This document shows, in pieces, positions 2,530 through 63,665 of a DNA stretch of 64,000 nucleotides. The stretch is from an uncultured delta proteobacterium. Lineage in GTDB: Bacteria; Myxococcota_A; Polyangia; Polyangiales; Houyiibacteriaceae. A program made the translations under genes and the position numbers. A model generated the notes under the pieces. That model was given only the letters and a program-made list of their open reading frames with translations, did not search any database and had not been told where the DNA came from. Position 1 is the first letter of the stretch, and each line of letters begins with the position of its first letter. The stretch is from positions 42,754 to 106,753 of the forward strand of contig CAVQHC010000017.1 of NCBI GenBank assembly GCA_963712235.1, given 5' to 3'.

Positions 2530-4724
2530 AGCGACCCGGGCCAGAGCGTCGCCACGACGGCACGTTGGGCTCGCTCCTGCTTCCAGTATTCGGATTCGGG
2601 GTCGAGCGCGACGCTGCCGTCGATGAAGGTTTGGAGCGTGGCCTCGACCCCACGCGCAAACTCGGCGTCCTGCACCACGATGTTGGCCTCGCTCTCCCAG
2701 AAGCTGGCGGTCGCATCGAGGTTTGCCGAGCCGATGCTGGTCACCAGGCCATCGACCGAGACCAGCTTGGCGTGCACGTACGGCCGGATGCGGCCTCCGC
2801 GCGAGACGATCATCGGAGACGGCGGCGGCACGAACTCGTAGATCTCGACACCCGCCTGGAGCAAAGGCTCGAGCTTTGCTTTGACCATGTACTCGAACAG
2901 CGTGCGGTGCATGGGCGCCGGGAAGAAGGTCCCGTCATCGCGCCGGGCTGCCGCATTGCCGGTCAGCAGCTTCACGCTCACGTCTTTGGCCAAGAGACGA
3001 TAGATCGCGCGCTCGAGCGCCGGGACGATCGGATAGTCGTTGACGATGTACACATGGTCCTCGGCCACGTCGAACATCGACTCGTACATCGCCAGGCCGT
3101 TGGTATCGGCAAGACCTCGGTGCACCACCAGACGCCCCGAGGCCGAGCCCGCGCGCTTGAGCTCGGGCATCGTGTCGCGGTCGTTCGGAATCTCGGCGCC
3201 GCCCTGTCGGTGCCAGGTGCCGGTGAAGGTCTCCTGAACCATCCGCACCAAGGGCCCACTGACTTCGACATGCGCATCGAGCCAGGGAATGCGCTCGTGG
3301 CGGGTGTTGTCGTGCACCGGAACTTCGCTGAACCCCATGTAGTACTCGTCGCTCGCGTTGCGGCCGGACACGAAGGCGCGGCGGCCGTCGATGATGACGA
3401 GCTTGCGATGGTCTCGCTTCTTGAGCCGAGAAACGTCCATCTGCTTGCGAGATCCGATCGGGCTGACCGCCAGAACCTCGATGTTTTCTTCTTCCTTGAG
3501 AGACAAGATCGACGGGTTGAGGCGCCCGAGCACCTCCTCGTCGGAGTAGAGCGCGTCGACCATGAACCGGACCTTCACGCCTGCGCGCGCCCGCTGAATC
3601 AGCCTGACGATCATGTGCTCGGTGAAGTCGCTCGGCTGAACCATGTAGAACTGAATGTGAATCGTCGATTGGGCCTCATCGAAGGCAGCCAGCAAGCGCC
3701 GCCTCGCTTCGCCGTTGTCGAGCTCGGCGTGGAACGAGTTGCCAAGAACCAGCTTGGAGTCGGTGGTTTGATCGAGGCGCCAGTCCAGCGGATTGCTCTT
3801 CGCCCTGTCTTCGAGCAGCTTCGCCGCCCGTTCCATCTCGACCGTAAACACACCCGCGAGCGCTCGCCTGAGCGCGGTCGCCGGCGTCATGACGCTCACC
3901 TGCTTGGCAAGGCTTTCGTCGGCGCGCTCCACCCTCTCGGTCAGAATGGTGGTCACCGGCACGCCTTTGGCGCGCAGCCGGCGAATCGCCGTCGACGCGA
4001 ACATCTCGACGAAATCGATTCCCAGGCTTCGCAGCTCCTCCTCTTCGGCCGAATAGACGAGGATCGCTCCAGGCGGCAGCCGCTGGGTGACGAGCGCATC
4101 ATGGATCAGGGGGTCGCGGTTCTTCACGTGAATGTCGAAGTAGACGAGCTCGAAGCCCTCGTCGATGAGCGCGCGGAGCGCTTCGATCGGTGAAACCGGC
4201 GGGATCGGTTGATCGGGACGGCCGGGGAGCACGAGCGCCGCATCCACCAGCACGACCGGCCGGCCGCTGGCAACTTGCAGCAAACGGTGGCCGGACAGCT
4301 CGGTGACGACTTCCCCCCGGTCATTGCAAACGGCAACGCGAACACGATGGAGGCCGGGCCCGGGCGCGTCGATCAGCGCGCGCACTTCGCCCGCAACCTC
4401 GATCGCTGCCTCCGCAGCGACCGCGTCATCGACGTAGAACCGCGCGACCGTGCCGAGCTTGGAGGAAACACCCAAGGTCGCCGAGAGCTCGACCGGCTCT
4501 CCTGGGCTGGTGACCTCGTCGCGCTGCACCCCGCCGATGATTCGTCGAAGCCCGGGGTTCCGACCCCATCGTTCCATCGTCGAGCCGAGCGAAGAGGCCG
4601 CTGCCTCGAGCATCGAAGGCGACTGGTCGCTCGTAGCGAAGCGCTTGTCGACCTCTTCGGCGATCGTCGTAGCGATTCGCCGGATTCGTTCCGCCAGATC
4701 CTCGGGTGGCCTCGGTTCGCTCAC
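2520..4724 (-). CDS. Phospholipase D / cardiolipin-synthase-like protein with a large N-terminal domain of unknown function
   Basis: Two HKD motifs: HRKLVIIDGRRAFVSGRN and HAKLVSVDGLVTSIGSAN. Start set at in-frame GTG 4724, just downstream of the hpt stop; the track ORF extends to 4832 but would overlap hpt. Confidence 0.75.
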   Translation of the reverse strand: MSEPRPPEDLAERIRRIATTIAEEVDKRFATSDQSPSMLEAAASSLGSTMERWGRNPGLRRIIGGVQRDEVTSPGEPVELSATLGVSSKLGTVARFYVDDAVAAEAAIEVAGEVRALIDAPGPGLHRVRVAVCNDRGEVVTELSGHRLLQVASGRPVVLVDAALVLPGRPDQPIPPVSPIEALRALIDEGFELVYFDIHVKNRDPLIHDALVTQRLPPGAILVYSAEEEELRSLGIDFVEMFASTAIRRLRAKGVPVTTILTERVERADESLAKQVSVMTPATALRRALAGVFTVEMERAAKLLEDRAKSNPLDWRLDQTTDSKLVLGNSFHAELDNGEARRRLLAAFDEAQSTIHIQFYMVQPSDFTEHMIVRLIQRARAGVKVRFMVDALYSDEEVLGRLNPSILSLKEEENIEVLAVSPIGSRKQMDVSRLKKRDHRKLVIIDGRRAFVSGRNASDEYYMGFSEVPVHDNTRHERIPWLDAHVEVSGPLVRMVQETFTGTWHRQGGAEIPNDRDTMPELKRAGSASGRLVVHRGLADTNGLAMYESMFDVAEDHVYIVNDYPIVPALERAIYRLLAKDVSVKLLTGNAAARRDDGTFFPAPMHRTLFEYMVKAKLEPLLQAGVEIYEFVPPPSPMIVSRGGRIRPYVHAKLVSVDGLVTSIGSANLDATASFWESEANIVVQDAEFARGVEATLQTFIDGSVALDPESEYWKQERAQRAVVATLWPGSLYS

Positions 4725-19593: not shown

Positions 19594-19640
19594 GCTTTGG
19601 GAGCGCACTCTGGCGTGGATCGGGGAGAACTGACGCCGTC

Positions 19641-19689
19641 ACTGGCACTGGCACTGGCGCTGGCACTGGCACTGGCACTGGCGCTGACC
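19641..19689. repeat. (CTGGCR)n hexanucleotide array, left flank of copy A
   Basis: actggcactggcactggcgctggcactggcactggcactggcgctgacc read directly. Confidence 0.9.
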
Positions 19690-19693
19690 TACC

Positions 19694-19884
19694 GGGGCTC
19701 GGAAAAAGGCGCGACACGGGGCTGCGCCGAACGGCTCGGCTTGCATTTGTGTTCGGAAGCACTTGGGAGCTTTGACCACGCAAGCCTCGCGTCGGCGCGC
19801 GCGCCAATCTGCGGTGGTTGCTGTCTTGCAGATTGGCACTTGCGACGTCGACTCCGCCCCATATCGCGCCTTTTTCCGGGCCCC
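19694..19884 (+). repeat. 191-bp foldback element, copy A
   Basis: GGGGCTCGGAAAAAGGCGCGA...TCGCGCCTTTTTCCGGGCCCC terminal inverted repeat. Internal hairpin GCCAATCTGC-N15-GCAGATTGGC. I count 3 differences from copy C. Confidence 0.85.
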
Positions 19885-20146
19885 TCCACACATCGACATT
19901 CATGGCGAAGAGCGGGGCGTAAGGATGCTCTCGCGATGTCCTCGACATGGTTCGACATGTATGGCGGGAGTACGTTACGAGATCTGCAAAACCTCGAGGC
20001 GCCGGCTCTAGCGGCCGGAGAGTCTCCAGGACATCGCGCAGATTTCAGGAGCGCGTGGGGTCCCCAGAAGGGCGCCAGCCCGGCCCCACTCACACGCAAA
20101 AAGGAGATCACGATGACCGAGTAGAGTCACAGGCGCACGTCACACC

Positions 20147-20197
20147 GGCACTGGCACTGGCACTGGCGCTGACGCTGGCGCTGGCGCTGACGCTGGC
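20147..20197. repeat. (CTGGCR/CTGACG)n hexanucleotide array, right flank of copy A, followed by (GGC)n
   Basis: ggcactggcactggcactggcgctgacgctggcgctggcgctgacgctggc, then gggcggcggcggcggcggtgaatcc. Confidence 0.9.
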
Positions 20198-20295
20198 GGG
20201 CGGCGGCGGCGGCGGTGAATCCGGTCACGTTCGCTCACCTAAGTACCCGAAGTCCTTGGCCCACCCCCTGGCACGCCTCGTGCTCTCCCCCCTGC

Positions 20296-21799
20296 ATGCT
20301 CGCCACCGCGCATGCCGCGTGTCTCATCGGTATTGAAGCCAACCCCGTTCAAGTCGAGGTGCGGCTCGGCGAGGGGCTACCCGGGTTCGACATCGTCGGG
20401 CTGCCCGAGCGCGGCGTTCGGGAGAGTCGGATTCGGGTGCGCGCTGCCCTTTCGTCGATCGGCTTCGCGTTTCCGCCTCGGCATCTGGTTCTGAACCTCG
20501 CGCCTGGCGATGTTCCAAAGACGGGGGCGGGGCTCGACCTCGCCATCGCTGCCGCAATCCTAGCGGCTTGCGAAGGCGTGTCGTCCGAACAGCTCGCAAG
20601 CACGCTCCTCATCGGCGAGCTCTCGCTGTCCGGCGAGCTTCGTCCGGTGCGCGGCGTCCTCGCCCTGCTGCGAAGCGCGCGCCAAGCGGGTCTCAAGAAC
20701 GCGATCATCCCGGAAGGAAACCGTCACGAGGCCATGCTCGTCGAAGGGGTGTCGGTGCTTGACCGCGCCGCACGTGGGCGCCGTGGTTCGCTGGCTGGGC
20801 GGCGAGGCGCCCCTCCCGGACGTCACCGGCGAGACTGCCGTGCTCGACGCCAGCCTGGACGCCGAGCCGGAGCGCGACCTCGGCGCCATTCGAGGGCAAG
20901 AGGCCGCCCGGCGCGCGCTCGAAATCGCCGCAGCCGGCAGCCACCACATGCTTCTCATCGGGAGCCCGGGCGCAGGCAAAACGATGCTCGCGCGCGCCCT
21001 CCCCTCGATCCTGCCGCCCCCGACCTCCGAAGAGGCCCTCGAAATCGCCACCATCGCAAGCTCGGCCGGGCTTCGCGCGCCGCGGATTCTCACCGGGCGT
21101 CAGCGTCCTTTCCGCGCCCCGCATCACACCGCAAGCGCAGCCGCCATCGTCGGCGGCGGCGAGCCGATCCGCGCCGGCGAGCTGACCCTTGCCCACCGGG
21201 GCGTCCTGTTTCTCGACGAGCTTCCGGAGTTCCGCCGCGACGCGATCGAAACCCTGCGCACGACCATGGAAGAAGGTGAGGTCGTCATCTCGAGAGCGCG
21301 GCAGCGTGTGCGCCTCCCCGCCGAACCGATGGTCATCGCCGCCATGAACCCTTGCCCCTGTGGCTACCACGGCGACCCAACGCGCTTTTGCCGATGCGGC
21401 GAGCTGCAAATCGCGCGCTACCGCGGCCGGGTCTCCGGCCCCCTCCTCGATCGTTTCGATCTTCAGGTCGCCGTGCCGCGGGTCAGCGCGCGGACGATGC
21501 GAAAAGCATCGCGAGGCGAAGCGTCCAAGGCCGTCCAGCAGCGGGTCGAGGAGGCACGGGTTCGCCTGACCTCTTCGGGCGCGCGCGCCAGCATCGAATC
21601 GCTCACCGAAAACGTCGCCCAAGAGGCACTCACGCTGCTCGAGCTCGGCGTCGAACGCCTGAAGATGAGCGCTCGCGCCTATCTCAAAGCGCTTCGCGTC
21701 GCGCACACCATCGCTGCTCTCGATGGGGCGGCCGAGGTGCTGGCCGCGCACACCGCCGAGGCGCTGCAATACCGAGTCCTCGATCGCGAGCCTGCCTGA
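20296..21799 (+). pseudogene. comM: ComM/YifB Mg-chelatase-like AAA+ protein, frame interrupted near 20745-20775
   Basis: MLATAHAACLIGIEANPVQVEV... (Lon-like N-domain) in the frame of ORF 20215. After ...LVEGVSV it continues in the +1 frame (ORF 20759..21799): GSPGAGKTMLARALPSILPP, VLFLDELPEF, zinc-finger-like [15 protein letters not shown]. Confidence 0.8.
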
Positions 21800-21852
21800 G
21801 GCGTCATCGATCGACCCAGCAACCCACCGACACCAACAAGGAGCAAGAGCAA

Positions 21853-22851
<999 letters not shown>

Positions 22852-24360: not shown

Positions 24361-24445
24361 GGAGAGCTGTCCGAGTGGTCGAAGGTGCGTGATTCGAAAT
24401 CACGTGTACCGAGAGGTACCAAGGGTTCGAATCCCTTGCTCTCCG
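24361..24445 (+). tRNA. tRNA-Ser (anticodon CGA)
   Basis: Acceptor GGAGAGC/GCTCTCC. Anticodon arm CGTGA-TTCGAAA-TCACG. Long variable arm. T-loop GGTTCGAATCC. No encoded CCA. Confidence 0.9.
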
Positions 24446-24533
24446 CTACGTTCTTTGACCTACAAGTTGACGACCGCAGAGGCCCCTGCCCAAAAAGCAG
24501 AGGCTGAAGCGAACAGGAAGGCGGACTCCGCCA

Positions 24534-24618
24534 GGAGAGGTGACCGAGTGGTCGAAGGTGCACGACTGGAAATCGTGTGTACCGTAAGGTACCGGGGGTT
24601 CGAATCCCTTCCTCTCCG
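24534..24618 (+). tRNA. tRNA-Ser (anticodon GGA)
   Basis: Acceptor GGAGAGG/CCTCTCC. Anticodon arm CACGA-CTGGAAA-TCGTG. Long variable arm. GGTTCGAATCC T-loop. Confidence 0.9.
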
Positions 24619-24638
24619 CCGATCGGCGCTCCCGCCCA

Positions 24639-24736
<98 letters not shown>

Positions 24737-24783
24737 TTTTTACGCTATAATGGAGGAAGCGGGGCAAGGCGACGTACTTAGCG

Positions 24784-25590
24784 ATGGACCGAATCATGCG
24801 TCATTCGATTCCCATCTTCTTGCTCACCATGGTCCTCGGGCCGGCGGATGCCCTCGCGCAACCGCCTTCGACTCAGCCGAGAGACCAGCCGTCGTCGATC
24901 GTCGTCATCGACTCGCCGCCGCAAGCGCCTCCGCCGCAGCAGCCTTCCACGGGCGTCATTCTCCGCCGGCCGGGGACGGGTCGCGTCATGCTGACGGGAA
25001 CCCCCGTACGCACGCACTTCCAATCGCCAACCGACGGCGTCTCGTTCCAACTTCGAACCGGCGGCAGCTACACCTCGGTCAGCGGCGTCAGCTTCGGCAT
25101 GGGGTACGGCATGGGGTACGGCTGGGGTGGCCCCGGCTGGGGCTGGGGCGGCTACGGCGTCGGCTACGGCGTCGCACCCTATTACGGAGAGGTGGTCACC
25201 AAGGCCTATCAACCGATCTGCGAAGCGCCCTGCGATGCGACCCTGCTCTCGGGCAGGCATCGTTTCGCGCTCTCGCTCAACGGCGGAAGGCCCCTCGACG
25301 TCGCGCAGCCCGTCGACCTCAGCGTCGAGTCGGTCATCGAAGGCCGCTACGTCGACAAGAGCCACCTGCGCAGAGCCGGCTGGATCACCTTCGTCGCAGG
25401 CTCCATCGCCGGCATGGCGCTCATGTTCTCCTCGATCGACTACCGCGCCGACCCCTACTTCGGCGATCAAATCCGCTACGGCGGCATGTTCTACACAGGC
25501 GTCGGCCTCTTCGTCAGCTCGATCATCACCGGCGCCGTCCTCGCCGCCCAAGGCGACGAAGCCAGCGTCACGGTCTACCCCGTAGAGTAG
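24784..25590 (+). CDS. Hypothetical secreted/membrane protein with Gly/Tyr/Trp-rich segment
   Basis: Signal-like IPIFLLTMVLGPADALA. GMGYGMGYGWGGPGWGWGGYGVGYG. Two C-terminal hydrophobic helices. The alternative ATG at 24796 is equally possible. Confidence 0.55.
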   Translation: MDRIMRHSIPIFLLTMVLGPADALAQPPSTQPRDQPSSIVVIDSPPQAPPPQQPSTGVILRRPGTGRVMLTGTPVRTHFQSPTDGVSFQLRTGGSYTSVSGVSFGMGYGMGYGWGGPGWGWGGYGVGYGVAPYYGEVVTKAYQPICEAPCDATLLSGRHRFALSLNGGRPLDVAQPVDLSVESVIEGRYVDKSHLRRAGWITFVAGSIAGMALMFSSIDYRADPYFGDQIRYGGMFYTGVGLFVSSIITGAVLAAQGDEASVTVYPVE

Positions 25591-25619
25591 GGGGGGTGTA
25601 GCCACGTAGCGGACTCAGG

Positions 25620-25693
25620 AGGACTCGAACCTCCAACCCCCGGCTCCGTAGGCCGGTGCTCTATCCAATTGAGCTATGAGTCCCCGGAGCGCG
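25620..25693 (-). tRNA. tRNA-Arg (anticodon ACG)
   Basis: Reverse complement gives GGACTCA..GCTCAATTGGATAGAGC..CCGGC-CTACGGA-GCCGG..GGAGGTTCGAGTCCTCC-TGAGTCC-G, 74 nt. Confidence 0.9.
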
Positions 25694-25745
25694 CACGGTA
25701 GCGGCCCCGTTTGGAGCGTCAAGCGCCCCAACTTGCGGAGAGGAA

Positions 25746-25835
25746 GGGATTCGAACCCCCGGTACGGCTCTACACCGCACGGCCGCTTAGCAAGCGGCTG
25801 CCTTCGACCACTCGGCCACCTCTCCAAGAAGCAAA
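25746..25835 (-). tRNA. tRNA-Ser (anticodon GCU)
   Basis: Reverse complement gives GGAGAGGTGGCCGAGTGGTCGAAGG..GCCGC-TTGCTAA-GCGGC, a long variable arm, and GGTTCGAATCCCTTCCTCTCCG. Confidence 0.9.
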
Positions 25836-28533: not shown

Positions 28534-29045
28534 GGGGCGCGGAAAAACCCGTCACGGGGTTCCATCGAACGGCTCGGCGCCAAGCGGCTTGTGCTGCCGC
28601 GGATGTTTGGGGGTCGGGTCTTGGGTGGGTTGGCTGGTACGGTTTGGTTGAACCGCCCCGCCCACCCCCACCCGTAATCCTCCCTGGCGCGGCATTCGCT
28701 TCGCTCTGCCTTGCCGGCGCATTCGCGCCGGGCTTCGCCCTGCGGGCTCGCGCTTCCGCCTGCCGTGGGGGAGCCGGGTTCCGCCTGCCGTATGGGCGCC
28801 GGGTTCGCCCTGTCTCCATATGAAGGGGCGCGCTTGAAGATCTATCCGTATGGAGGGGCGCGGAAAAAAACCCGTCATGGGGTGGAGTCGACGTAACGAG
28901 TGACAATCTGCAAGACAGCAACCACCCCAGATTGGCGCGAGTTCCGAGGCGAGGCTTGCGTGGCCTAAGGCCCCAAGCCCCTCCGGCCACCTCTGCAAGC
29001 CGAGCCGTTCGATGGAACCCCGTGACGGGTTTTTTTCCGCGCCCC
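28534..29045. mobile_element. 512-bp foldback (MITE-like) element with about 45-bp terminal inverted repeats
   Basis: GGGGCGCGGAAAAACCCGTCACGGGGTTCCATCGAACGGCTCGGC at 28534..28578 is the reverse complement of 29002..29045, apart from A5 versus T7. Sits between two convergent genes. Confidence 0.8.
28855..29045 (-). repeat. 191-bp foldback element, copy B (inverted orientation, divergent)
   Basis: Same length and internal landmarks as copies A and C (GGCTTGC/GCAAGCC stem, CAATCTG..GGTGGTTGCTGTCTT..CAGATTG hairpin). Terminal stem GGGGCGCGGAAAAAAACCCGTCA / TGACGGGTTTTTTTCCGCGCCCC. Confidence 0.8.
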
Positions 29046-29055
29046 GGTGGTCCGT

Positions 29056-33028: not shown

Positions 33029-33120
33029 CGCTGGCACTGGCACTGGCACTGGCACTGGCACTGGCTCTGGCGCTGGCGCTGGCACTGGCACTGGCGCTGG
33101 CGCTGGCGCTGGCGCTGGCA
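33029..33120. repeat. Solo (CTGGCR)n hexanucleotide array, about 15 units
   Basis: gctggcactggcactggcactggcactggcactggctctggcgctggcgctggcactggcactggcgctggcgctggcgctggcgctggca in an intergenic region, with no adjacent 191-bp element. Confidence 0.9.
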
Positions 33121-33391
33121 AAAACTGGCGGAGGAGGAGGAGTTCGCAAACTCTGCCTCTTGCCGCAAAGGCCAGAACAAAGGATTTCACGCGCTGGAGC
33201 CGCGCCGGCATGAGGATCGGCAGCCCCTTTTTGGCAGCTCTGGCGCTTTTGACATTGGCAGGACGGATCAGATCAGTAAGCCGGATGCCATCTCGGATTC
33301 CACTGGTCGGAACGCTCGGTAGACGCGCAGTAGCCTCGGTATGCGCCGCGCAAGAGTTGGCAAGAAAGGCGAGTACAGCGATAATGGCAGC

Positions 33392-35113
33392 ATGATACGT
33401 ACCAGTGTTGTCTGCATATCCGTCGTTTTCATTCTGGCTGCGTGCGGCTCAACGTCGGGAGGCGGAGCCGGAGTCGGAGGCTCAGCCGGAGTCGGAGGCT
33501 CAGCCGGAGTCGGAGGCTCAGCCGGAGTCGGAGGCTCAGCCGATTCGTGTGATATTAGCACCTGCGAATGCGAGGTCGATACGGATTGTGCCGAGTTCGA
33601 GGTTTGCGACACGACCTCGACACCTGGCCGACTCTGCACGTGCGCGCCCGCCTACGAGGACGCGGGCGGTGGCTGTTTCTTCGCCGGGGCGCCTAGCGAC
33701 CAGGGTTTCCAGGCTGCCGACGTGTGGAGCACGACCAACGACGTGCGGGCGGTCATCGATCCGAACGCCGCCGGCAGCATTGACACCGGCGTCGCGAGCC
33801 TGACGCCCGACGGTGTCTGTGTCTTTGACTCGATCTTCCAGAGGTTCACCATGCCGCCGCGGGATCGCTCCGAGATCTTTGCCGTTGACGTCAGCTACTT
33901 CGCCGAGACCACCGGCTTCGACTCGCTTGGGCCTGTGCTCCTGATCGATGGCGGCTGGAATACGCTCCCCCGGGAACAGGGCAGCTTCACCAACAACACA
34001 TTCTGTCTCGGCGAGCGTGGCTACGGCGGCGACGTCGAGTTCCGCATCGGCCCGGCCACCGAGAGCGACAGCTGCGTAGCCACGCCGGAGTCGTTTCTCC
34101 GATTTGATCGCGTCGCGGTCCGACGCGCCCTTGCCGGCGAGTGTCCGGATGACGTCGGCGAGACGATCAATGGCGACATGGAAGCCAACAACGGCTGGAC
34201 CTTCGCCTTTGCCAGCGGCGGCACCGCCGACTACGCCGACAACATCGGCGCCGGAAACAGCCGCGGTATCCGCATCACCCGCTCGACGACGGCCTCGAGC
34301 GCGTCGGCAACATCAAGAATCTCGCTGCCAATGGACACCTCGGTTCCCAGCAGCGCGATCGAGTTCTTCTCGGCTGGAACCGCGAGTGGGGTCTTCGAGG
34401 TCAGGCTCGGCGGCCAGCCAGTCTCGCGAATGACGCCGACCGGGGTGCGCCGTGTGTGCGTGCCCGAGTGGGCAAAGGGCACCGTGCAGGACATCACCTT
34501 CGCGCTCACCCAGGTCATGGGTTCCGGCGCTCCGATCAATCGTTCGGAGACCATCGACCTCGACGCGGTGTCGGTGGTGAGCGACACTGGTTGCGGCGCT
34601 GACGCCACCCTGTACGACAATGACTTCGAGACCTTCTTGAACACCCCCGGCCTCGCACCCGGCTGGGCGGTCACCATTGGCGGAGTCAATGGAACCGAAG
34701 CGCCGGCGACGATTCTCAATGACCCAAGCAGCGCGCACTCGGGCAACGGAAGCCTGCGTCTGACCGCGACCAACGTGTGCAACCGCGCGACCGCACGTCG
34801 CGACATCTTCGTCCCGGAGAGCAGCGGCGCCGCCGGTCCGGCGATCAAGGCGTTCGTCAACATCCCCAGCGCGCCGATCGGCCGGGGCGGGATCCGCTTC
34901 TACCGGACGCCGTTCCGCCCGGTCGAGGTCAACGCCCCTGAGGGCGTAGGCTACCAGCAGGTGATCATGTGCATTCCGCCCAAGCACATCGGCCGGCGGC
35001 TGACGATCGAGGCCTTCGCCGATGGCGGTGGCGGTAGTTGCACCGACATCGCCGGCGAGGACACTTTCGTCGACGATCTCGAGGTCACGACCGACCCGAC
35101 ATGCCCGAACTGA
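33392..35113 (+). CDS. Secreted lipoprotein with (GVGGSA)4 linker, Cys-rich module and CBM-like repeats
   Basis: MIRTSVVCISVVFILAACGS lipobox. GVGGSA x4. CDISTCECEVDTDC. Repeated NGDMEANNGW / NDFETF..GW segments resemble carbohydrate-binding-module starts. Confidence 0.6.
   Translation: MIRTSVVCISVVFILAACGSTSGGGAGVGGSAGVGGSAGVGGSAGVGGSADSCDISTCECEVDTDCAEFEVCDTTSTPGRLCTCAPAYEDAGGGCFFAGAPSDQGFQAADVWSTTNDVRAVIDPNAAGSIDTGVASLTPDGVCVFDSIFQRFTMPPRDRSEIFAVDVSYFAETTGFDSLGPVLLIDGGWNTLPREQGSFTNNTFCLGERGYGGDVEFRIGPATESDSCVATPESFLRFDRVAVRRALAGECPDDVGETINGDMEANNGWTFAFASGGTADYADNIGAGNSRGIRITRSTTASSASATSRISLPMDTSVPSSAIEFFSAGTASGVFEVRLGGQPVSRMTPTGVRRVCVPEWAKGTVQDITFALTQVMGSGAPINRSETIDLDAVSVVSDTGCGADATLYDNDFETFLNTPGLAPGWAVTIGGVNGTEAPATILNDPSSAHSGNGSLRLTATNVCNRATARRDIFVPESSGAAGPAIKAFVNIPSAPIGRGGIRFYRTPFRPVEVNAPEGVGYQQVIMCIPPKHIGRRLTIEAFADGGGGSCTDIAGEDTFVDDLEVTTDPTCPN
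33470..33541 (+). repeat. Perfect 18-bp tandem repeat x4 inside the lipoprotein gene
   Basis: GGAGTCGGAGGCTCAGCC repeated four times in frame (GVGGSA). Confidence 0.9.
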
Positions 35114-35279: not shown

Positions 35280-35370
<91 letters not shown>

Positions 35371-38202: not shown

Positions 38203-38859
38203 CTAAACTCCCTGGGCGTCCGCGTCCCAAATGACCTTGTGCATCTGCATCTGCACGCGAACCGGCAACTGGTCCTCGAGGACCCAGTTCACCAGGTCCC
38301 TAGGGTCGAGCTCCCCCCAGACGCAACTCAGCAGAACGGCATGGACCCGATCGGGGAGGCGATGCTCGGCGAGGATGCCTTTGGTCCAGTCGTAGTCGGC
38401 ACGGTCCGCGAGAACGAACTTCACCTCGTCGCGCTTGCTGAGCTCGGCGATGTTCTCCCACCGGTTGCGCCGTGACTCGCCGCTTCCCGGCGCTTTGAGG
38501 TCCATGATGCGATGCACGCGGGGGTCGACTTTGGAGATGTCGCGCTCACCGCTGGTTTCGAGCAGCACGGTGCGCCCCGCATCGCAAAGCTCTTGAAGCA
38601 ATGGAATCGCGCCTGGCTGCAAGAGCGGCTCGCCGCCCGTGAGCTCGACGAGCGGGGTGCCGAACGAAAGTGCCTTCGCGAGCACCTCTGCGCGCGGCAT
38701 TTCGGTGCCACCTTCGAACGCCTGCGGGGTGTCGCACCAGCGGCAGCGCAGATTGCAGCGAGAAAGCCGGACGAAGGTGCAGGGAAGCCCGGCGAAGGTC
38801 GATTCACCTTGAATCGATTCGTAGATCTCGTGAATGCGTATCTGCTCGGTGTCGGTCAT
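38203..38859 (-). CDS. queE: 7-carboxy-7-deazaguanine synthase (radical SAM)
   Basis: IYESIQGEST, CNLRCRWCDT (CxxxCxxC), ELTGGEPLLQ, VKFVLADRADYDW. Confidence 0.9.
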   Translation of the reverse strand: MTDTEQIRIHEIYESIQGESTFAGLPCTFVRLSRCNLRCRWCDTPQAFEGGTEMPRAEVLAKALSFGTPLVELTGGEPLLQPGAIPLLQELCDAGRTVLLETSGERDISKVDPRVHRIMDLKAPGSGESRRNRWENIAELSKRDEVKFVLADRADYDWTKGILAEHRLPDRVHAVLLSCVWGELDPRDLVNWVLEDQLPVRVQMQMHKVIWDADAQGV

Positions 38860-40139
38860 CTCAAGCGTGGGTTGCGGGTGATCAGGATCAGCATCTGGCC
38901 CTCCTGTGCGGCACGTTCGGGCACCTCAACGATCAGATCCCACATTCCGGGCTTCGCATCCAGCGCCAGGGTCTGCGTGCGCCGGCGAACGCAGCGCTCC
39001 CCCCTTTCGTCGACGCGAACCCAAAGAACACGGTGCTTGTAGCCCGCGAGGTCGAGCGCAGAGGCGCGGAGGCGCGTGCGCTCCGTCAGCTCGACCCGGT
39101 GCCGGTAGAGGCGCGAGTTGGGTTTCAGAGAGCCGCAGTTTTTGGGGAGGGTTTCGGCGAGGGGGAGAGAGGGTTTGGTGGAGAGGGCGGAGAAGGGGAT
39201 GGGGATAGGGGTAGGGGTAGGGGTAGTGTCAGTGCCAGCGTCAGTGTCAGTGTCAGTGTCAGTGTCAGTGCCGGCGCCGGCGTCAGTGCCAGCGTCAGTG
39301 CCAGCGTCAGTGCCGGTGCCGGCGTCAGTGTCAGTGTCAGTGTCCCCAGCTCCCACTGCCTTCCTCAACGCATCCAACATCTGCAGCGTCAATAGGTTCC
39401 TCAAATTGTTTCCGTATTGGAGGCCCTTGTCCGTCAGCTGGCATGCGGCCTTGAGGCCGCCCTCGCCTAGGACGTTTGGATGGACGCCGTCTCGGGCTAG
39501 GCCTTTGCGGGGGAGCGCGCTCAGGGCCGCGTTGTAGTCGATGTACGGGAGCGACCAGTGCTTGGCGACGGCTTTGGTGATCGCGTTGAAGCGGCTGATC
39601 CAGCGATTCTTGTGCGTGTTTCTTCTTGGCAGCGCGGCGCCGAGGATGGGGACGACGCCCATCGCGGCGAGCTCTTCGACCAGGTACACCAGGCGCTTCG
39701 CATAGACCCGCTCGTTTTCGTTTTGCGCGTCGTTGCCGCCGAACAAGATCAGCGCCCAGCGTGCTTGGGTCTGCTCGATCTCGTGTCGGTAACTGGCCGG
39801 GCGGCCACCGAGGACGTAGCGAAGGTTCCAGCTCACCCCGGCGGCTTCGCTTTCCCGGTTAAACGAGTTGCGCCGGCCGGTGGCGAAGTAGTTCACGGTC
39901 TCGGCCAGATCCTGGTGCTCGCCAAGCTCTACGTACGAGGTCGCGAAGCAGTGCAGGAATGCTCTGCTGGCCACGCTGGAGCCGCCCATCTTCGAAAACG
40001 CATCGTCGCGCAGCTCCGGGTTGCGCGCATGGATCTGTCGAACGTGCGCGGTGACTTCGGCGCTGAGGGCCTCGGGTTCGGCTCGAGCGCTTCCGGCGAC
40101 GAGCAGCGTCACAAAGCAAGCAAGGGTCGCTGATTTCAT
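38856..40139 (-). CDS. SGNH/GDSL-family hydrolase with (T-D/A-G)n linker and C-terminal beta-rich domain
   Basis: Signal MKSATLACFVTLLVAGSARA. ILFGGNDAQ and DGVHPN SGNH blocks. Linker GDTDTDTDAGTGTDAGTDAGTDAGAGTDTDTDTDTDAGTDTTPTPTPIPIP. ATGA overlaps at both ends. Confidence 0.7.
   Translation of the reverse strand: MKSATLACFVTLLVAGSARAEPEALSAEVTAHVRQIHARNPELRDDAFSKMGGSSVASRAFLHCFATSYVELGEHQDLAETVNYFATGRRNSFNRESEAAGVSWNLRYVLGGRPASYRHEIEQTQARWALILFGGNDAQNENERVYAKRLVYLVEELAAMGVVPILGAALPRRNTHKNRWISRFNAITKAVAKHWSLPYIDYNAALSALPRKGLARDGVHPNVLGEGGLKAACQLTDKGLQYGNNLRNLLTLQMLDALRKAVGAGDTDTDTDAGTGTDAGTDAGTDAGAGTDTDTDTDTDAGTDTTPTPTPIPIPFSALSTKPSLPLAETLPKNCGSLKPNSRLYRHRVELTERTRLRASALDLAGYKHRVLWVRVDERGERCVRRRTQTLALDAKPGMWDLIVEVPERAAQEGQMLILITRNPRLR
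39227..39345. repeat. Hexanucleotide array (GTCAGT/GCCAGC type) used as a coding linker
   Basis: gtcagtgccagcgtcagtgtcagtgtcagtgtcagtgtcagtgccggcgccggcgtcagtgccagc... lies in frame within the SGNH hydrolase gene. Confidence 0.85.
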
Positions 40140-41014
40140 TGAATGGCGCTCGAGGGGATCACGAAGAGCCGGCTTGGCTGGCCGGTGGCGGTGCGGTGCT
40201 GGTTGTCGGTGAGGACGACCGCCGAACCATCGTCCATCCAGACCAGCCCTTCGAAGTTCGGCAGCGGCGAGATGAGCTTGGCCAAGTCGGCGGCAAGCGT
40301 GGGCTCGATCCACTGCCCTTGTGGGCCGCGAGGGATCGGAAAGCGAAGGAGGCGCGAGACGCCGTAATGCCGCTCCACGGCGAGGGCGACGATCGAAGCA
40401 CCGACGAGCCTGCAGCTCAGTGCCGCGAGCTTCCCCGTCTCAGTGGTCATCCGTACCCGGTGCGCGGTCCACGCCTGCGTCTTCGGGTCGAACATTCCGA
40501 CCGGCGCCCAGCGGCCCTCGCGCTGCTGTTCCACGAGCTCGGTCGCCACCACGAAGAGGCCATCTACGTGACAAATCCCCTCGATGCCACGGTTATCTGG
40601 AGCCGTGAGCTGCCAGCGGGCGTAGTCGAGGTTGCCGACCGGAACGACGACGAATCGCCCTGCGTCGAGCCGGCCGTCGAGGATGATGTCGCTGAGGCGT
40701 CCCTTCTCCTGGGTTTCGGTGCCGAGCAGGAAACGCGTCCCGTCGACCCAGGCCATCGCCTCGAGATCGGTGCCGGGCGGCGCGCCGACGACCGGGTAGC
40801 GGGTGACGCCAAAGGTCTGAGGGTCGATCCGGAGCACCGATTCTGCATCTTCGCCTGGCGCCCAGAACGCGCCGTGATCGTCCACGGTGAGCCCAGACAA
40901 GCCGGGCACCTCGGACCGGAGCGTAACGATGCGCCCTGGGCCCCGTGGCTCCTTTTTGGTGCAGCCAGCGCAGGCGAGCAGCAGCGCCACGGCAACCGCC
41001 GCCCAGCCGGACAC
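40136..41014 (-). CDS. Hypothetical lipoprotein (possibly beta-propeller, phytase/SdiA-regulated-like)
   Basis: GTG start. MSGWAAVAVALLLACAGC lipobox. Repeated D-G/W-x-G strand-like segments. The family call is tentative. Confidence 0.5.
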   Translation of the reverse strand: MSGWAAVAVALLLACAGCTKKEPRGPGRIVTLRSEVPGLSGLTVDDHGAFWAPGEDAESVLRIDPQTFGVTRYPVVGAPPGTDLEAMAWVDGTRFLLGTETQEKGRLSDIILDGRLDAGRFVVVPVGNLDYARWQLTAPDNRGIEGICHVDGLFVVATELVEQQREGRWAPVGMFDPKTQAWTAHRVRMTTETGKLAALSCRLVGASIVALAVERHYGVSRLLRFPIPRGPQGQWIEPTLAADLAKLISPLPNFEGLVWMDDGSAVVLTDNQHRTATGQPSRLFVIPSSAIQ

Positions 41015-62736: not shown

Positions 62737-62786
62737 CACTGGCACTGGCACTGGCACTGGCACTGGCGGTGGCGCTGGCGCTGACC
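62737..62786. repeat. (CTGGCR)n hexanucleotide array, left flank of copy C
   Basis: cactggcactggcactggcactggcactggcggtggcgctggcgctgacc. Confidence 0.9.
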
Positions 62787-62790
62787 TACC

Positions 62791-62981
62791 GGGGCTCGGA
62801 AAAAGGCGCGACACGGGGCTGCGCCGAACGGCTCGGCTTGCATTTGTGTTCGGAAGCACTTGGGAGCTTTGACCACGCAAGCCTCGCCTCGGCGCGCGCG
62901 CCAATCTGCGGTGGTTGCTGTTTTGCAGATTGGCACTTGCGACGTCGACTCCGCCCCATATCGCGCCTTTTTCCGAGCCCC
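62791..62981 (+). repeat. 191-bp foldback element, copy C
   Basis: Perfect 21-bp terminal inverted repeat GGGGCTCGGAAAAAGGCGCGA / TCGCGCCTTTTTCCGAGCCCC. Internal GCCAATCTGC..GCAGATTGGC hairpin. Confidence 0.85.
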
Positions 62982-63104
62982 TCCACACATAGACATTCAT
63001 GGCGAGGAGCGAGGCGTAAGGGTGCTCCCGCGATGTCCTCGACGTAGTTCGACATTTACGGCGGGAGTACGTTCCGAGATCCGCAAAACCTCGGGGCGCA
63101 GGCC

Positions 63105-63431
63105 CTAGCGACCCGAGAGTCTCCATGACATCGCGCAGACTTCATCGAGCACGATGTCGACCTCTGCGACTCGCGTGCTTGGAAAGTAGCCGTAAGCGAC
63201 TGCGAGTTGGAGCCCTGCGCGAACTTCTTTCGCGGACCCGCACGCTGACGCGAACCGAGCTTTCGCCGTTCCAGGGTCGTTTCCATCGGCTTCGGCGATG
63301 TTGAGAACGACGCTGTTCATGGCCCGATGGATTTGGTCGAAGAGCGACCGGTCCCGTTTCCGAACGACCGGAAGCACCTCTCGCAGCCCGCCTGCCGCCT
63401 GAAGCGCCCTTTGCTGAATGATGAGTCCCAT
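63105..63431 (-). CDS. Four-helix-bundle protein (23S rRNA intervening-sequence protein / Avd-like family)
   Basis: QIHRAMNSVVLNIAEADGN...RFASACGSAKEVRAGLQLAVAYGYF...VDIVLDEVCAMSWRL matches the NIAEG...GS..E...L.lA..lgy signature. AAGGAG 7 nt before ATG 63431. The upstream extension in the track runs through the repeat array. Confidence 0.75.
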   Translation of the reverse strand: MGLIIQQRALQAAGGLREVLPVVRKRDRSLFDQIHRAMNSVVLNIAEADGNDPGTAKARFASACGSAKEVRAGLQLAVAYGYFPSTRVAEVDIVLDEVCAMSWRLSGR

Positions 63432-63438
63432 GAGTGAT

Positions 63439-63509
63439 CTCCTTTTTTGCGAGTGAGTGGGGTTCACCGAAAGGGCGAAGCCCGGCCCCACTCGCTCGCA
63501 AAAAAGGAG
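63439..63509. promoter_or_regulatory. 24-bp-arm palindrome containing the RBS of the four-helix-bundle gene
   Basis: CTCCTTTTTTGCGAGTGAGTGGGG (63439..63462) pairs with CCCCACTCGCTCGCAAAAAAGGAG (63486..63509), with one G-T position. The 23-nt loop contains GGGC-GAA-GCCC. Confidence 0.6.
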
Positions 63510-63550
63510 TTTACGATGACCAAGTAGAGTCACATGAGCACGTCTCGCGG

Positions 63551-63615
63551 TCGCTGACGCTGTCGCTGTCACTGACGCTGGCGCTGGCGCTGACACTGGC
63601 ACTGGCACTGGCACC
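63551..63615. repeat. (CTGACG/CTGGCR)n hexanucleotide array, right flank of copy C
   Basis: tcgctgacgctgtcgctgtcactgacgctggcgctggcgctgacactggcactggcactggca. Confidence 0.9.
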
Positions 63616-63619
63616 GACA

Positions 63620-63646
63620 CCCGCCCACCCGCAGGGGGTGGGCGGG
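63620..63646 (-). terminator. GC-rich hairpin downstream of the rhodanese gene (also part of the repeat-family end motif)
   Basis: CCCGCCCACCC (63620..63630) pairs with GGGTGGGCGGG (63636..63646). No U-run, so the terminator function is uncertain. Confidence 0.3.
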
Positions 63647-63665
63647 CGGTGAAACCAAACCGCTG

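Follow-up and report, generated by a model that had tools for sequence, protein, structure and literature searches.

The 64,000-nucleotide stretch analysed here (the window, from a contig of an uncultured delta proteobacterium) carries between a rhodanese gene and an acyl-CoA synthetase gene a composite of repeated parts that spans positions 62737 to 63662. In the order of the minus strand the parts are as follows:

63621..63662, minus strand: G/C-rich hairpin (a fragment of the G module) between the rhodanese stop codon and the array, by direct reading
63546..63620, minus strand: upstream hexanucleotide array (GNCAGY)n in g1 polarity, by TRF
63510..63545, minus strand: leader (GTGACTCTACTTGGTCATCG...) that forms the 5′ boundary of the g1 cassette, kept among relatives
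63439..63509, minus strand: 5′ palindrome with 24-nt arms (63439–63462 and 63486–63509) and a 23-nt loop
63105..63431, minus strand: g1, an S23p / 23S_rRNA_IVP / TIGR02436 four-helix bundle gene of 108 aa, by Pfam, NCBIfam and fold
62987..63104, minus strand: spacer of 118 nt from g1 to the foldback, conserved only in the full-composite lineage
62787..62986, minus strand: foldback copy B, a 200-nt three-way junction whose folded (sense) strand is the minus strand, by covariance model R1
62737..62785, minus strand: downstream hexanucleotide array in g1 polarity, directly next to the conserved sequence upstream of the acyl-CoA synthetase gene, by TRF

This stretch is a mosaic of three separate repeat families found in marine myxobacteria: a one-directional six-base array, a strongly conserved four-helix-bundle mini-gene, and a new 200-base structured RNA-like element. 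An earlier note, made from the letters alone, had described an array, palindrome, mini-gene, spacer, foldback and second array here, and each was found where it had been placed; its view that the layout fits no described element class is upheld. Four further features of the window belong to the same families:

19640..20215, minus strand: copy A, a degenerate duplicate of the composite, with array, foldback (19690–19889), spacer, the last ~13 codons of g1, half of the palindrome and array, then (GGC)n
28534..29049, plus strand: unit with foldback copy C (28850–29049; sense strand plus; R1 score 227.6 bits), with no gene and no hexamer array
33031..33120, minus strand: solo (CTGGCR)15 array in the gap between divergent genes (TRF score 131, ORF context)
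39225..39344, plus strand: solo (GTCAGY)20 array that the GDSL-lipase ORF 38856..40313 (Lipase_GDSL_2; TRF) reads through with its 3′ end

Copy A had been reported as a second occurrence of the arrangement, and it does have its parts in the order of copy B, at 92–96% identity, with homology beginning and stopping within the arrays. It has suffered an internal deletion that removed half of the palindrome and all of g1 save the last ~13 codons (tblastn recovers only g1 residues 97–109), and its foldback scores 226 bits with R1. A block duplication is thus confirmed, and the arrangement is also present in relatives (loci L034 and L123–L125). The third foldback, the solo arrays, the G motif as a separate repeat, and the Shine-Dalgarno (SD) sequence and start codon within the 3′ arm region of the palindrome had been overlooked.

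Assignment of g1 to the S23p/23S IVS/Avd-fold family is borne out by HMM searches with both PF05635 (46.2 bits, cut-off 33.8) and TIGR02436 (44.8 bits, cut-off 24). An AF2 monomer model (pLDDT 93.3) has 2rld (BT_0352) and 2gsc (Xcc0516) as its top Foldseek matches (TM 0.83–0.88, rmsd 1.7–2.4 Å), and against Avd chains it gives TM 0.78–0.82 at 11–13% sequence identity. By these scores g1 is structurally nearer to the non-DGR S23p proteins than to Avd, and the description "Avd-like" holds for the fold only. With the Avd of the Bordetella phage BPP-1 DGR it has the four-helix-bundle fold and the Pfam family in common, but g1 lacks an adjacent reverse transcriptase (RT) or template/variable repeats, and BT_0352 and Xcc0516 are not DGR proteins. 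The published family consensus is GxxRxxxSxxxNxxE (PMC3936711), and g1 contains the motif R-x3-S-x3-N-x2-E, with R36, N44 and E47 invariant and S40 nearly so among 22 homologues; g1 has D in place of the leading G.

Because dN/dS is 0.03–0.09 (at dS 0.6–1.6), g1 is under strong purifying selection, and we conclude from this, from the several paralogues per MAG and from the confirmed fold that it is a functional gene. Its homologues form 812 clusters, and hundreds of near-identical variants occur in Polyangiales metagenomes, in several copies per genome and with many near-identical paralogues at unrelated loci inside one genome; the identical protein P0136 occurs with three different flank combinations. 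An exact look-up of the g1 protein of the window gave no record. In many relatives g1 is convergent (tail-to-tail) with g2, a paralogue of 50% identity. A defence or phage origin was rejected on the basis of searches of PADLOC and PHROGs, which have no match to g1 or g2, of plasmids, which hold no relatives, and of viral contigs, which hold no relatives of g1 or of the foldback core pattern.

The leader is conserved upstream of the palindrome in L001, L032, L034, L041, L121–L124, L127 and L132. The palindrome itself has a stem of 24–29 bp and loops of the GNA/GNRA type, and both of its arms lie 5′ of the g1 ORF; in the mRNA the 3′ arm holds the SD sequence AAGGAG, and the start codon is also able to pair. 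It retains ~93% DNA identity where synonymous sites are saturated, and there are compensatory changes in L041, L121, L122, L123 and L127, in L122 also within the SD arm. The second gene, g2, bears its own SD-pairing hairpin, different in sequence and equivalent in position. As judged from the compensatory changes and from g2's different hairpin, the hairpin is under selection. In 12 of 13 variants folding favours the antisense strand, a predicted preference that would suit a role in bottom-strand DNA or antisense RNA better than simple translational masking.

There are informative likenesses here to the 23S rRNA intervening sequences of Leptospira and Coxiella, in which a small ORF for a PF05635 protein also lies in a structured insertion without enzymes. 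The Coxiella element has in addition a perfect ~28-bp stem, cut by RNase III in that organism, that takes in the SD region, and short tandem GACAGAT repeats lie just upstream of its S23p ORF (PMC4990558). However, the g1 element lies outside rRNA and between long polar hexamer arrays, its stem arms are both 5′ of the ORF whereas those of the intervening sequences enclose it, and it occurs in many copies per genome; moreover, the Coxiella ORF is decaying whereas g1 is under strong purifying selection. A 23S rRNA intervening sequence was rejected for the window composite, as Rfam finds no rRNA in the window and the flanks are the rhodanese and acyl-CoA synthetase genes.

Approximately 30 copies of the foldback, with a closing stem of ~30 bp, were collected from the window and ~10 MAGs. 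In copy B, a perfect hairpin (62791–62981) corresponds to the 191 bp of the earlier note, and folding gives z-scores of −8.3 and −9.0 for its two strands. The covariance model R1 distinguishes the strands clearly, with 234.5 bits on the minus strand and 53.7 bits on the plus strand of copy B, and with 157–234 bits in sense and 14–56 bits in antisense on full-length foldbacks. Twenty-four pairs are changed on both sides with 98.4% of cells paired (0 of 500 shuffles were as high, and slid controls were 34–43% paired), the internal helices covary too, and there is a strand bias of 72 G·U against two A·C. Because folding is specific to one strand, the foldback probably acts as RNA or single-stranded DNA. 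Shuffled windows gave zero matches to the foldback core versus three observed, so chance is excluded. Rfam 15 returned nothing for the foldback, the palindrome or the arrays at gathering and permissive thresholds; the best sub-threshold scores were noise (e.g. a plant miRNA model at 25 bits versus 168), and the Rfam content of the window is tRNAs and SRP RNA only. We consider the foldback a candidate new structured element, with covariation support comparable to that of curated RNA families.

In at least 11 copies a convergent gene ends with its stop codon 8–20 nt away from the 3′ end of the foldback. There are A and U tracts inside the closing stem, but G+C pairs replace them in the L023/L025/L029 subfamily, and a terminator role is therefore not conserved; a scan for intrinsic terminators gave weak internal matches only, and this function was rejected.

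Like MITE/TIR elements, the foldback has terminal inverted repeats and multiple dispersed copies, and it is possible, although we think it unlikely, that the repeats are MITE- or REPIN-like non-autonomous elements mobilised in trans by a DDE transposase or an HUH/RAYT enzyme, with the arrays as preferred targets. The ~30-nt complementary arms at the foldback termini, the many copies including truncated and nested ones (L036, L037), and a ~515-nt relative bounded by 45-nt inverted arms are all consistent with this, and the proximity to convergent stop codons suggests a site preference. Mobilisation as single-stranded DNA would also fit the strand-specific folding seen in the foldback and in the g1 palindrome, which favours the antisense strand and has GNA/GNRA-type loops. 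However, no consistent direct repeat that would mark a target-site duplication was found at foldback or cassette ends (in one foldback subfamily TATGAA flanks both ends and is possibly part of the element itself). Furthermore, the g1 cassette is without terminal inverted repeats and is flanked by direct arrays of fixed polarity, transposase binding to ends does not explain the covarying internal helices, and the gene tables and 40 ORFs checked for the window and for ~290 kb of relatives' loci showed neither a transposase nor a RAYT.

A broader comparison is with the BIME/REP-REPIN, ERIC and Correia/NEMIS families, which are likewise short repeats in variable order, intergenic and often at gene 3′ ends, with no mobility gene within and with long hairpins expected to act in RNA or single-stranded DNA. 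In contrast to these, the foldback, at 200 nt, is larger, folds into a three-way junction whose internal helices covary, and has no Rfam match, and the window mosaic adds protein-coding mini-genes and long microsatellites.

Arrays adjoining g1 have g1-sense polarity on both sides at 15 of 15 loci, with 0 nt in antisense. They are often directly behind the stop codon of a host gene, in the intergenic gap, and orthologous downstream arrays are present in L041, L042 and L124. Homology commonly stops at the arrays. One example is L123 and L124, which are 98.7% identical to the distal array and have different genes beyond it, and others are L009 versus L001 and copy A versus copy B; the rearranged flanks of the relatives come from short-read metagenome assemblies, which can be chimeric at precisely such repeats. 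In practice, short-read assemblies of marine Polyangiales are broken, and may be wrongly joined, at these repeats. The data fit either order of events, with the array present first or with the array coming with the cassette. Sigma-54 promoters were rejected as an explanation of the arrays, since by our own reading of the sequence the GG/GC spacing is off consensus. The STRR heptanucleotide arrays of heterocystous cyanobacteria are also numerous and intergenic, with a short G+C-rich unit and a defined polarity; the arrays described here differ in having the hexamer unit GNCAGY and in bracketing a specific gene cassette in fixed polarity.

The site between the rhodanese and acyl-CoA synthetase genes differs among relatives. 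It is empty in L044 and L045 (with an intergenic gap of at most ~55 nt), holds a solo array in L042, arrays with g1 and g2 in L041, and arrays with g1, spacer and foldback in the window and L124. The foldback model finds no foldback at g1 loci L001–L018, L041, L121, L122 and L127–L131 (L132–L136, with g1 or g1/g2 and flanking arrays, lie outside the set scanned). Conversely, among the 22 loci (~8 MAGs) found by the foldback pattern, g1 is adjacent only in L032, where foldback and g1 lie side by side in opposite orientations, and in L034; further composites are L123–L125, from the g1 look-ups, and the two in the window. The modules are thus independent, and they are present or absent at one chromosomal site between related genomes.

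These comparisons provide both the copies in other genomes and the empty sites that the earlier note had thought worth seeking, and they qualify its account in three respects. Its "discrete unit" is correct in that a block was duplicated, but the composition is not fixed and modules vary between loci; a single unit of constant make-up does not survive, the foldback being independent and mostly solitary and orthologous sites carrying other module sets. Its parts do associate in so far as the arrays, the 5′ hairpin and g1 (with or without g2) form a non-random core, but the foldback is mostly apart from g1. Lastly, its conserved spacer of ~120 bp is real as 118 nt in the full-composite lineage, being kept in copy A, L123 and L124 and for the foldback-proximal 45 nt in L034, but is absent elsewhere. 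The spacer was considered as a g2 remnant and this was rejected, as tblastn against g2 gave no match. There is a likeness by eye to the 3′ end of g2 only in its first ~15 nt past the g1 stop.

At 11 of 13 independent junctions in the gene tables, the four-helix-bundle gene points the same way as the gene immediately upstream (our hand count; one-sided binomial p ~0.01), and a scan found no sigma-70 promoter within the composite unit. Read-through cannot account for all g1 expression, since in L122 and L127 the gene upstream of g1 is divergent. Co-orientation with upstream genes could also be expected if g1 and g2 were domesticated host genes, i.e. small regulators or chaperones tuned by the hairpin and by microsatellite length in the manner of contingency loci, with the foldback as a 3′-UTR stabiliser or terminator-like element and the adjacency as a by-product of permissive intergenic space. 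We find this improbable. The very strong purifying selection, the presence of g1 at the equivalent locus in the window, L041 and L124, the position of foldbacks at gene 3′ ends and between convergent genes, and the A and U tracts in the closing stem would all be accommodated. However, close relatives differ in presence and absence at one site, there are many near-identical paralogues at unrelated loci per genome, and some copies (copy A of the window and L034) are decayed.

As had been claimed, no rRNA, RT, transposase or integrase is detected within the window, and a window-wide repeat search lists no VR/TR pair. None of the 40 window ORFs and none of the relatives' gene tables has an RT (RVT domain), transposase or integrase, and there is no RT beside g1 or the foldback at more than 25 loci. 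Two described classes were rejected on these grounds: a DGR, with no RT next to g1 and no template/variable repeat pair, and an integron gene cassette, with no integrase and with flanks that are direct microsatellite arrays and not attC-type imperfect palindromes. As the survey covered the window and individual loci of relatives, an unlinked transposase, RT or RAYT-like enzyme could still act in trans. One version of this has g1 as an Avd-like cofactor of an unlinked RT, the foldback as RNA template or scaffold and the arrays as RT-made integration marks. The fold common to g1 and the Avd of the DGR RT complex could be so explained, as could the retron- or DGR-ncRNA-like topology of the foldback (a long closing stem with internal hairpins), the polarity of the arrays and their tie to g1, and an invariant foldback loop that displays one array unit, GACAGC. 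Nonetheless we regard it as highly improbable given the missing RT and repeat pair, the nearer resemblance of the g1 structure to non-DGR S23p proteins and the null PADLOC search; in addition, most g1 copies are without a foldback and most foldbacks without g1.

A moderately probable explanation, and the one that we favour, is that the composite is a repeat island in which modules accrete in arrays that serve as portable homology for recombination. The scaffold is the one-directional (GNCAGY)n microsatellite within an intergenic gap, and the g1 cassette, consisting of the gene with its leader and the 5′ hairpin that pairs the SD and start codon, is embedded in it, always in array polarity. In the lineage of the window, the spacer and an unrelated foldback occupy the g2 side. 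Modules may be spread and lost through host homologous recombination or gene conversion between arrays, with solo arrays as landing pads or as footprints in the way that solo LTRs are footprints. Under this repeat-island scheme g1 would be expressed mainly by read-through from the upstream host gene, and the hairpin could gate its translation, for example after RNase III cleavage. The g1 protein may also bind to the repeats.

A bolder proposal, which we hold to be improbable, is that S23p-type pentameric proteins are sequence-specific binders of single-stranded GNCAG repeats, and together with the polar arrays and sometimes the foldback RNA make up a hitherto unrecognised, recombinase-free copy-and-spread system. 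The protein would either promote breakage or gene conversion at arrays, or partner a repeat-making polymerase or RT to which it is not linked. If true, it would explain the GACAGAT repeats beside the Coxiella S23p ORF and give an orphan family a function.

PF05635, the S23p or "four helix bundle" family, has many members and a wide distribution, and to our knowledge no role outside DGR Avd has been established for it since the 1990s. The context of g1, with its polar microsatellites, SD-burying hairpin, presence and absence between relatives and purifying selection, makes the function of the family a testable question with regard to nucleic-acid binding, RNase III gating and array recombination.

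Two other components, a G module that contains 25-nt repeats and a solo 45-nt arm in inverted orientation (28534–28578), share a ~515-nt unit with foldback copy C, and the internal part of this unit is conserved in L020, L022, L024, L026, L033, L035 and L040. The G-rich motif of the composite also occurs at ~28640–28672 and in L020, L121 and L122, and the orthologous site of L041 and L124 lacks it; it is an independent repeat module, present beside the rhodanese gene as a fragment.

All of the features that the earlier note placed at 62737-63662 are present in the minus-strand order it gave, and they are listed here with three repeats that it overlooked.

63621-63662, minus: G/C-rich hairpin
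63546-63620, minus: upstream hexamer arrays
63510-63545, minus: conserved leader
63439-63462 and 63486-63509, minus: palindrome with 24-nt arms
63105-63431, minus: g1, a 108-codon ORF
62987-63104, minus: spacer of 118 nt
62787-62986, minus: foldback copy B
62737-62785, minus: second hexamer array
28850-29049, opposite strand to copy B: third foldback (copy C), with neither gene nor arrays
33031-33120 and 39225-39344: two solo arrays

The perfect hairpin of copy B spans 62791-62981 (the 191 bp first described), and on both strands the foldback greatly exceeds shuffled sequence in stability (z = -8.3 and -9.0). The arrangement was also said to recur at 19641-20225, and at 19640-20215 the same order is indeed found at 92–96% identity, including foldback copy A; the gene does not recur intact, a single internal deletion having taken nearly all of g1 and half of the palindrome. 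The whole block has been duplicated, and homology to copy B starts and stops within the arrays. The stretch after this decayed copy (20215-21279 and 21352-22851) contains a ComM/YifB-type ORF, divergent from it, with recA immediately behind; of such a protein the ORF encodes just the N-terminal ChlI/Lon-like domain, and it may be truncated or frameshifted.

The product of g1 belongs to a known family. It scores above the curated thresholds of both PF05635 and TIGR02436, in agreement with the original assignment, and has the family motif R-x3-S-x3-N-x2-E. The structural model is a confident four-helix bundle (pLDDT 93), and among solved structures it comes closest to two S23p proteins outside DGRs, BT_0352 and Xcc0516 (TM 0.83–0.88), with DGR Avd ranking next (TM 0.78–0.82). 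A database search returned 812 clusters of homologues; the best 120 of these are 85–97% identical and nearly all 108 aa long, and their named sources are Polyangiales, Myxococcales or "Deltaproteobacteria" MAGs, many on short contigs. Accession series and contig look-ups indicate multiple paralogues per MAG, e.g. one at the rhodanese locus and another at an SMC locus in GCA_013042435.1. Among copies near synonymous saturation (dS 0.6–1.6) dN/dS is 0.03–0.09, and the protein is thus functional and strongly constrained.

The 5′ structure of g1 is also under selection. The same leader and palindrome precede g1 in all independent loci recovered from relatives (loci designated by L numbers), and the palindrome is ~93% identical where the coding sequence is only ~80%. 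Differences within it are compensatory, as in L123 (GCGAG/CTCGC to GGCTG/CAGCC) and in L122, where the change hits the arm bearing the Shine-Dalgarno (SD) sequence itself. This 3′ arm holds AAGGAG, and a CAT within the leader offers a pairing partner to the g1 start codon. In 12 of 13 variants the antisense strand folds better by 1.9–9.9 kcal/mol, since positions that pair imperfectly are C·A in the sense strand, and on the antisense strand the loop reads as GNA/GNRA-type mini-hairpins; the palindrome may thus act on the bottom strand, either as well or instead. In L011–L016, L041, L127–L131 and L133–L136, g1 overlaps tail-to-tail with a convergent paralogue, g2 (50% identity), which has a palindrome of its own, unrelated in sequence but equivalent in position and adjoining the SD of g2. 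Relative to L041, L132 has lost g2 by deletion between two CCAAGG microhomologies, which suggests that the pair is probably ancestral. Arrays of (GNCAGY)n flank g1 on both sides and form a polar scaffold to whose direction the gene is tied, their polarity being that of g1 in 15 of 15 loci with none inverted, even where g2 lies between.

The earlier note regarded gene and foldback together as a single discrete unit, and this did not survive comparison with relatives. When one genome per species was scanned with a 22-base core, 22 foldback loci emerged in ~8 Myxococcales/Polyangiaceae MAGs, many of them at the end of a contig, and g1 adjoins only two of them (L032 and L034). Five further composites are known, L123–L125, reached through g1, and the two window copies A and B. 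With a covariance model built from 18 copies we detected 30 copies in the window and collected loci, and none in the g1 loci L001–L018, L041, L121, L122 or L127–L131. The foldback is an unrelated, strand-specific structured repeat that enters the same islands in either orientation (in L032 it is opposite to g1). The 64 pairs of its consensus form a three-way junction. In the alignment of the 30 copies, 98.4% of cells are paired and 24 pairs have changed on both sides; none of 500 shuffles attained these values, and slid controls pair at only 34–43%. Wobble pairs are one-sided (72 G·U at ~14 different positions, 2 A·C at one), and full-length copies score 157–234 bits on the G·U-rich strand and 14–56 on the other. 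Covariation, wobble and strand bias together show that the element is selected to fold as a single strand, either RNA or single-stranded DNA; in the window the folding strand is minus for copies A and B and plus for copy C. At least 11 copies have a convergent gene whose stop codon is 8–20 nt away from the 3′ end of the element, and the gene upstream is usually co-directional. We note that the ~17-nt apical loop of helix 3 (CAAGACAGCAACCACCG; alignment columns 62–79, window 62908-62925) is nearly invariant in all 30 copies and includes GACAGC, one consensus unit of the hexamer array.

For the gap in which copy B resides, between a rhodanese gene and an acyl-CoA synthetase gene, relatives of the synthetase provided an orthologous series. 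Empty sites, which the earlier note had proposed looking for, were found in L044 and L045, with the genes no more than ~55 nt apart and no island between. The gap contains a short array only in L042, arrays with g1 and g2 in L041, and arrays, g1, spacer and foldback in L124 and the window, the last alone having the extra G-rich hairpin; both gain and loss have occurred at this site. In L041, L123 and L124 the array begins right at the rhodanese stop codon or replaces it. L123 and L124 are 98.7% identical as far as the distal array with different genes beyond, L009 and L001 have a common cassette (99.5% identical) that stops at the array position, and one identical g1 protein has three different flank combinations. 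Recombination at arrays and cassettes would account for these cases, which could alternatively be assembly chimeras. A GDSL-lipase ORF (Lipase_GDSL_2; 38856-40313, minus) has no stop codon before the solo array at 39225-39344, which is translated as (D/A/G)-T repeats followed by ~150 further codons; judging from this reading frame, arrays at the 3′ ends of genes can rewrite C-termini.

The explanation we favour is that arrays of 50–130 bp would act as portable homology, with host recombination or gene conversion copying cassettes into them or deleting cassettes from them; a solo array would then be a landing pad or a footprint. A transposase or HUH enzyme acting in trans from an unseen location would be a different means of mobilising the modules, and we consider it unlikely; no consistent target duplication was found at foldback ends, and neither Pfam scans of the 40 window ORFs nor the gene tables of ~25 relatives' loci contain a reverse transcriptase, transposase or integrase. 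These ORFs are ordinary chromosomal genes (e.g. RecA, RF3, an ABC-F protein, arginine decarboxylase and thiolase), and the window has no rRNA and no template/variable repeat pair, so that the absences reported from the sequence hold. Searches for defence systems and phage families gave no matches, and plasmids and viral contigs yielded no relatives. At 24361-25825 are an SRP RNA (24650-24742) and a cluster of four tRNA genes, one for tRNA-Arg and three for tRNA-Ser; a fourth tRNA-Ser gene lies at 35281-35370, and the tRNA-Ser genes are the source of several short repeats in the window.

Transcription of g1 and g2 would be mostly by read-through from the upstream host gene, whose direction they share at 11 of 13 junctions in our tally from gene tables. 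Translation would be gated by the long perfect stem, and RNase III is a candidate for opening it by cleavage, by analogy with the Coxiella intervening sequence, in which a 28-bp stem including the SD region is cut by this enzyme (PMC4990558). That the modules are instead domesticated regulators seems improbable to us. ORF-bearing rRNA intervening sequences are functionally the nearest likeness to the g1 cassette, but they are defined by location in rRNA, which the cassette lacks, and they differ from it in stem geometry, arrays, copy number and protein selection. We rejected a DGR on the grounds that there is no reverse transcriptase or template/variable repeat pair in the window, and a connection to an unlinked reverse transcriptase is very improbable. 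In behaviour the foldback resembles REPIN, ERIC or Correia-type repeats, although it is larger, branched, and matches no family in an Rfam search. Neither S23p cassettes flanked by arrays nor the foldback had been described in the literature we searched; the former offer a testable setting for an orphan protein family, and the latter is an additional well-supported structured-element candidate.

Several other repeats are found near these modules. Copy C is part of a longer ~515-nt unit with 45-nt inverted arms at its ends, whose interior is a G module (28640-28812) with a G-rich motif, itself repeated elsewhere and also present downstream of g1 in L121 (3400-3560) and L122 (3360-3520). The run GGGTGGGGGTGGGCGGGGCGG within this module has at least four G-tracts with 1-nt loops between them and is apparently capable of folding into a G-quadruplex, and the window copy contains 25-nt tandem repeats (28754-28812). 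A further family, E2, is a hairpin with arms GGAGGRCGGCTCGGGATGG and CACAGCGATTGGG, and is found after g1 in L001 (4395-4525), between arrays in L043 (515-555 and 700-815), and adjoining a truncated foldback in L037 (~90-130). A ~37-nt motif with a small hairpin, AAAGGGGAC(A/T)GTCCCCTTT, occurs as an inverted pair on either side of the complete L001 island (3760-3800 and 4562-4600) and is found again beside arrays and foldbacks in other loci (L011 4770-4815; L029 ~4300-4335). An 18-nt tandem repeat at 33458-33542 (4.7 copies, 97% matches) is unrelated to the hexamer arrays and encodes a (GGSAGV)n linker in a putative lipoprotein gene (33341-35113).
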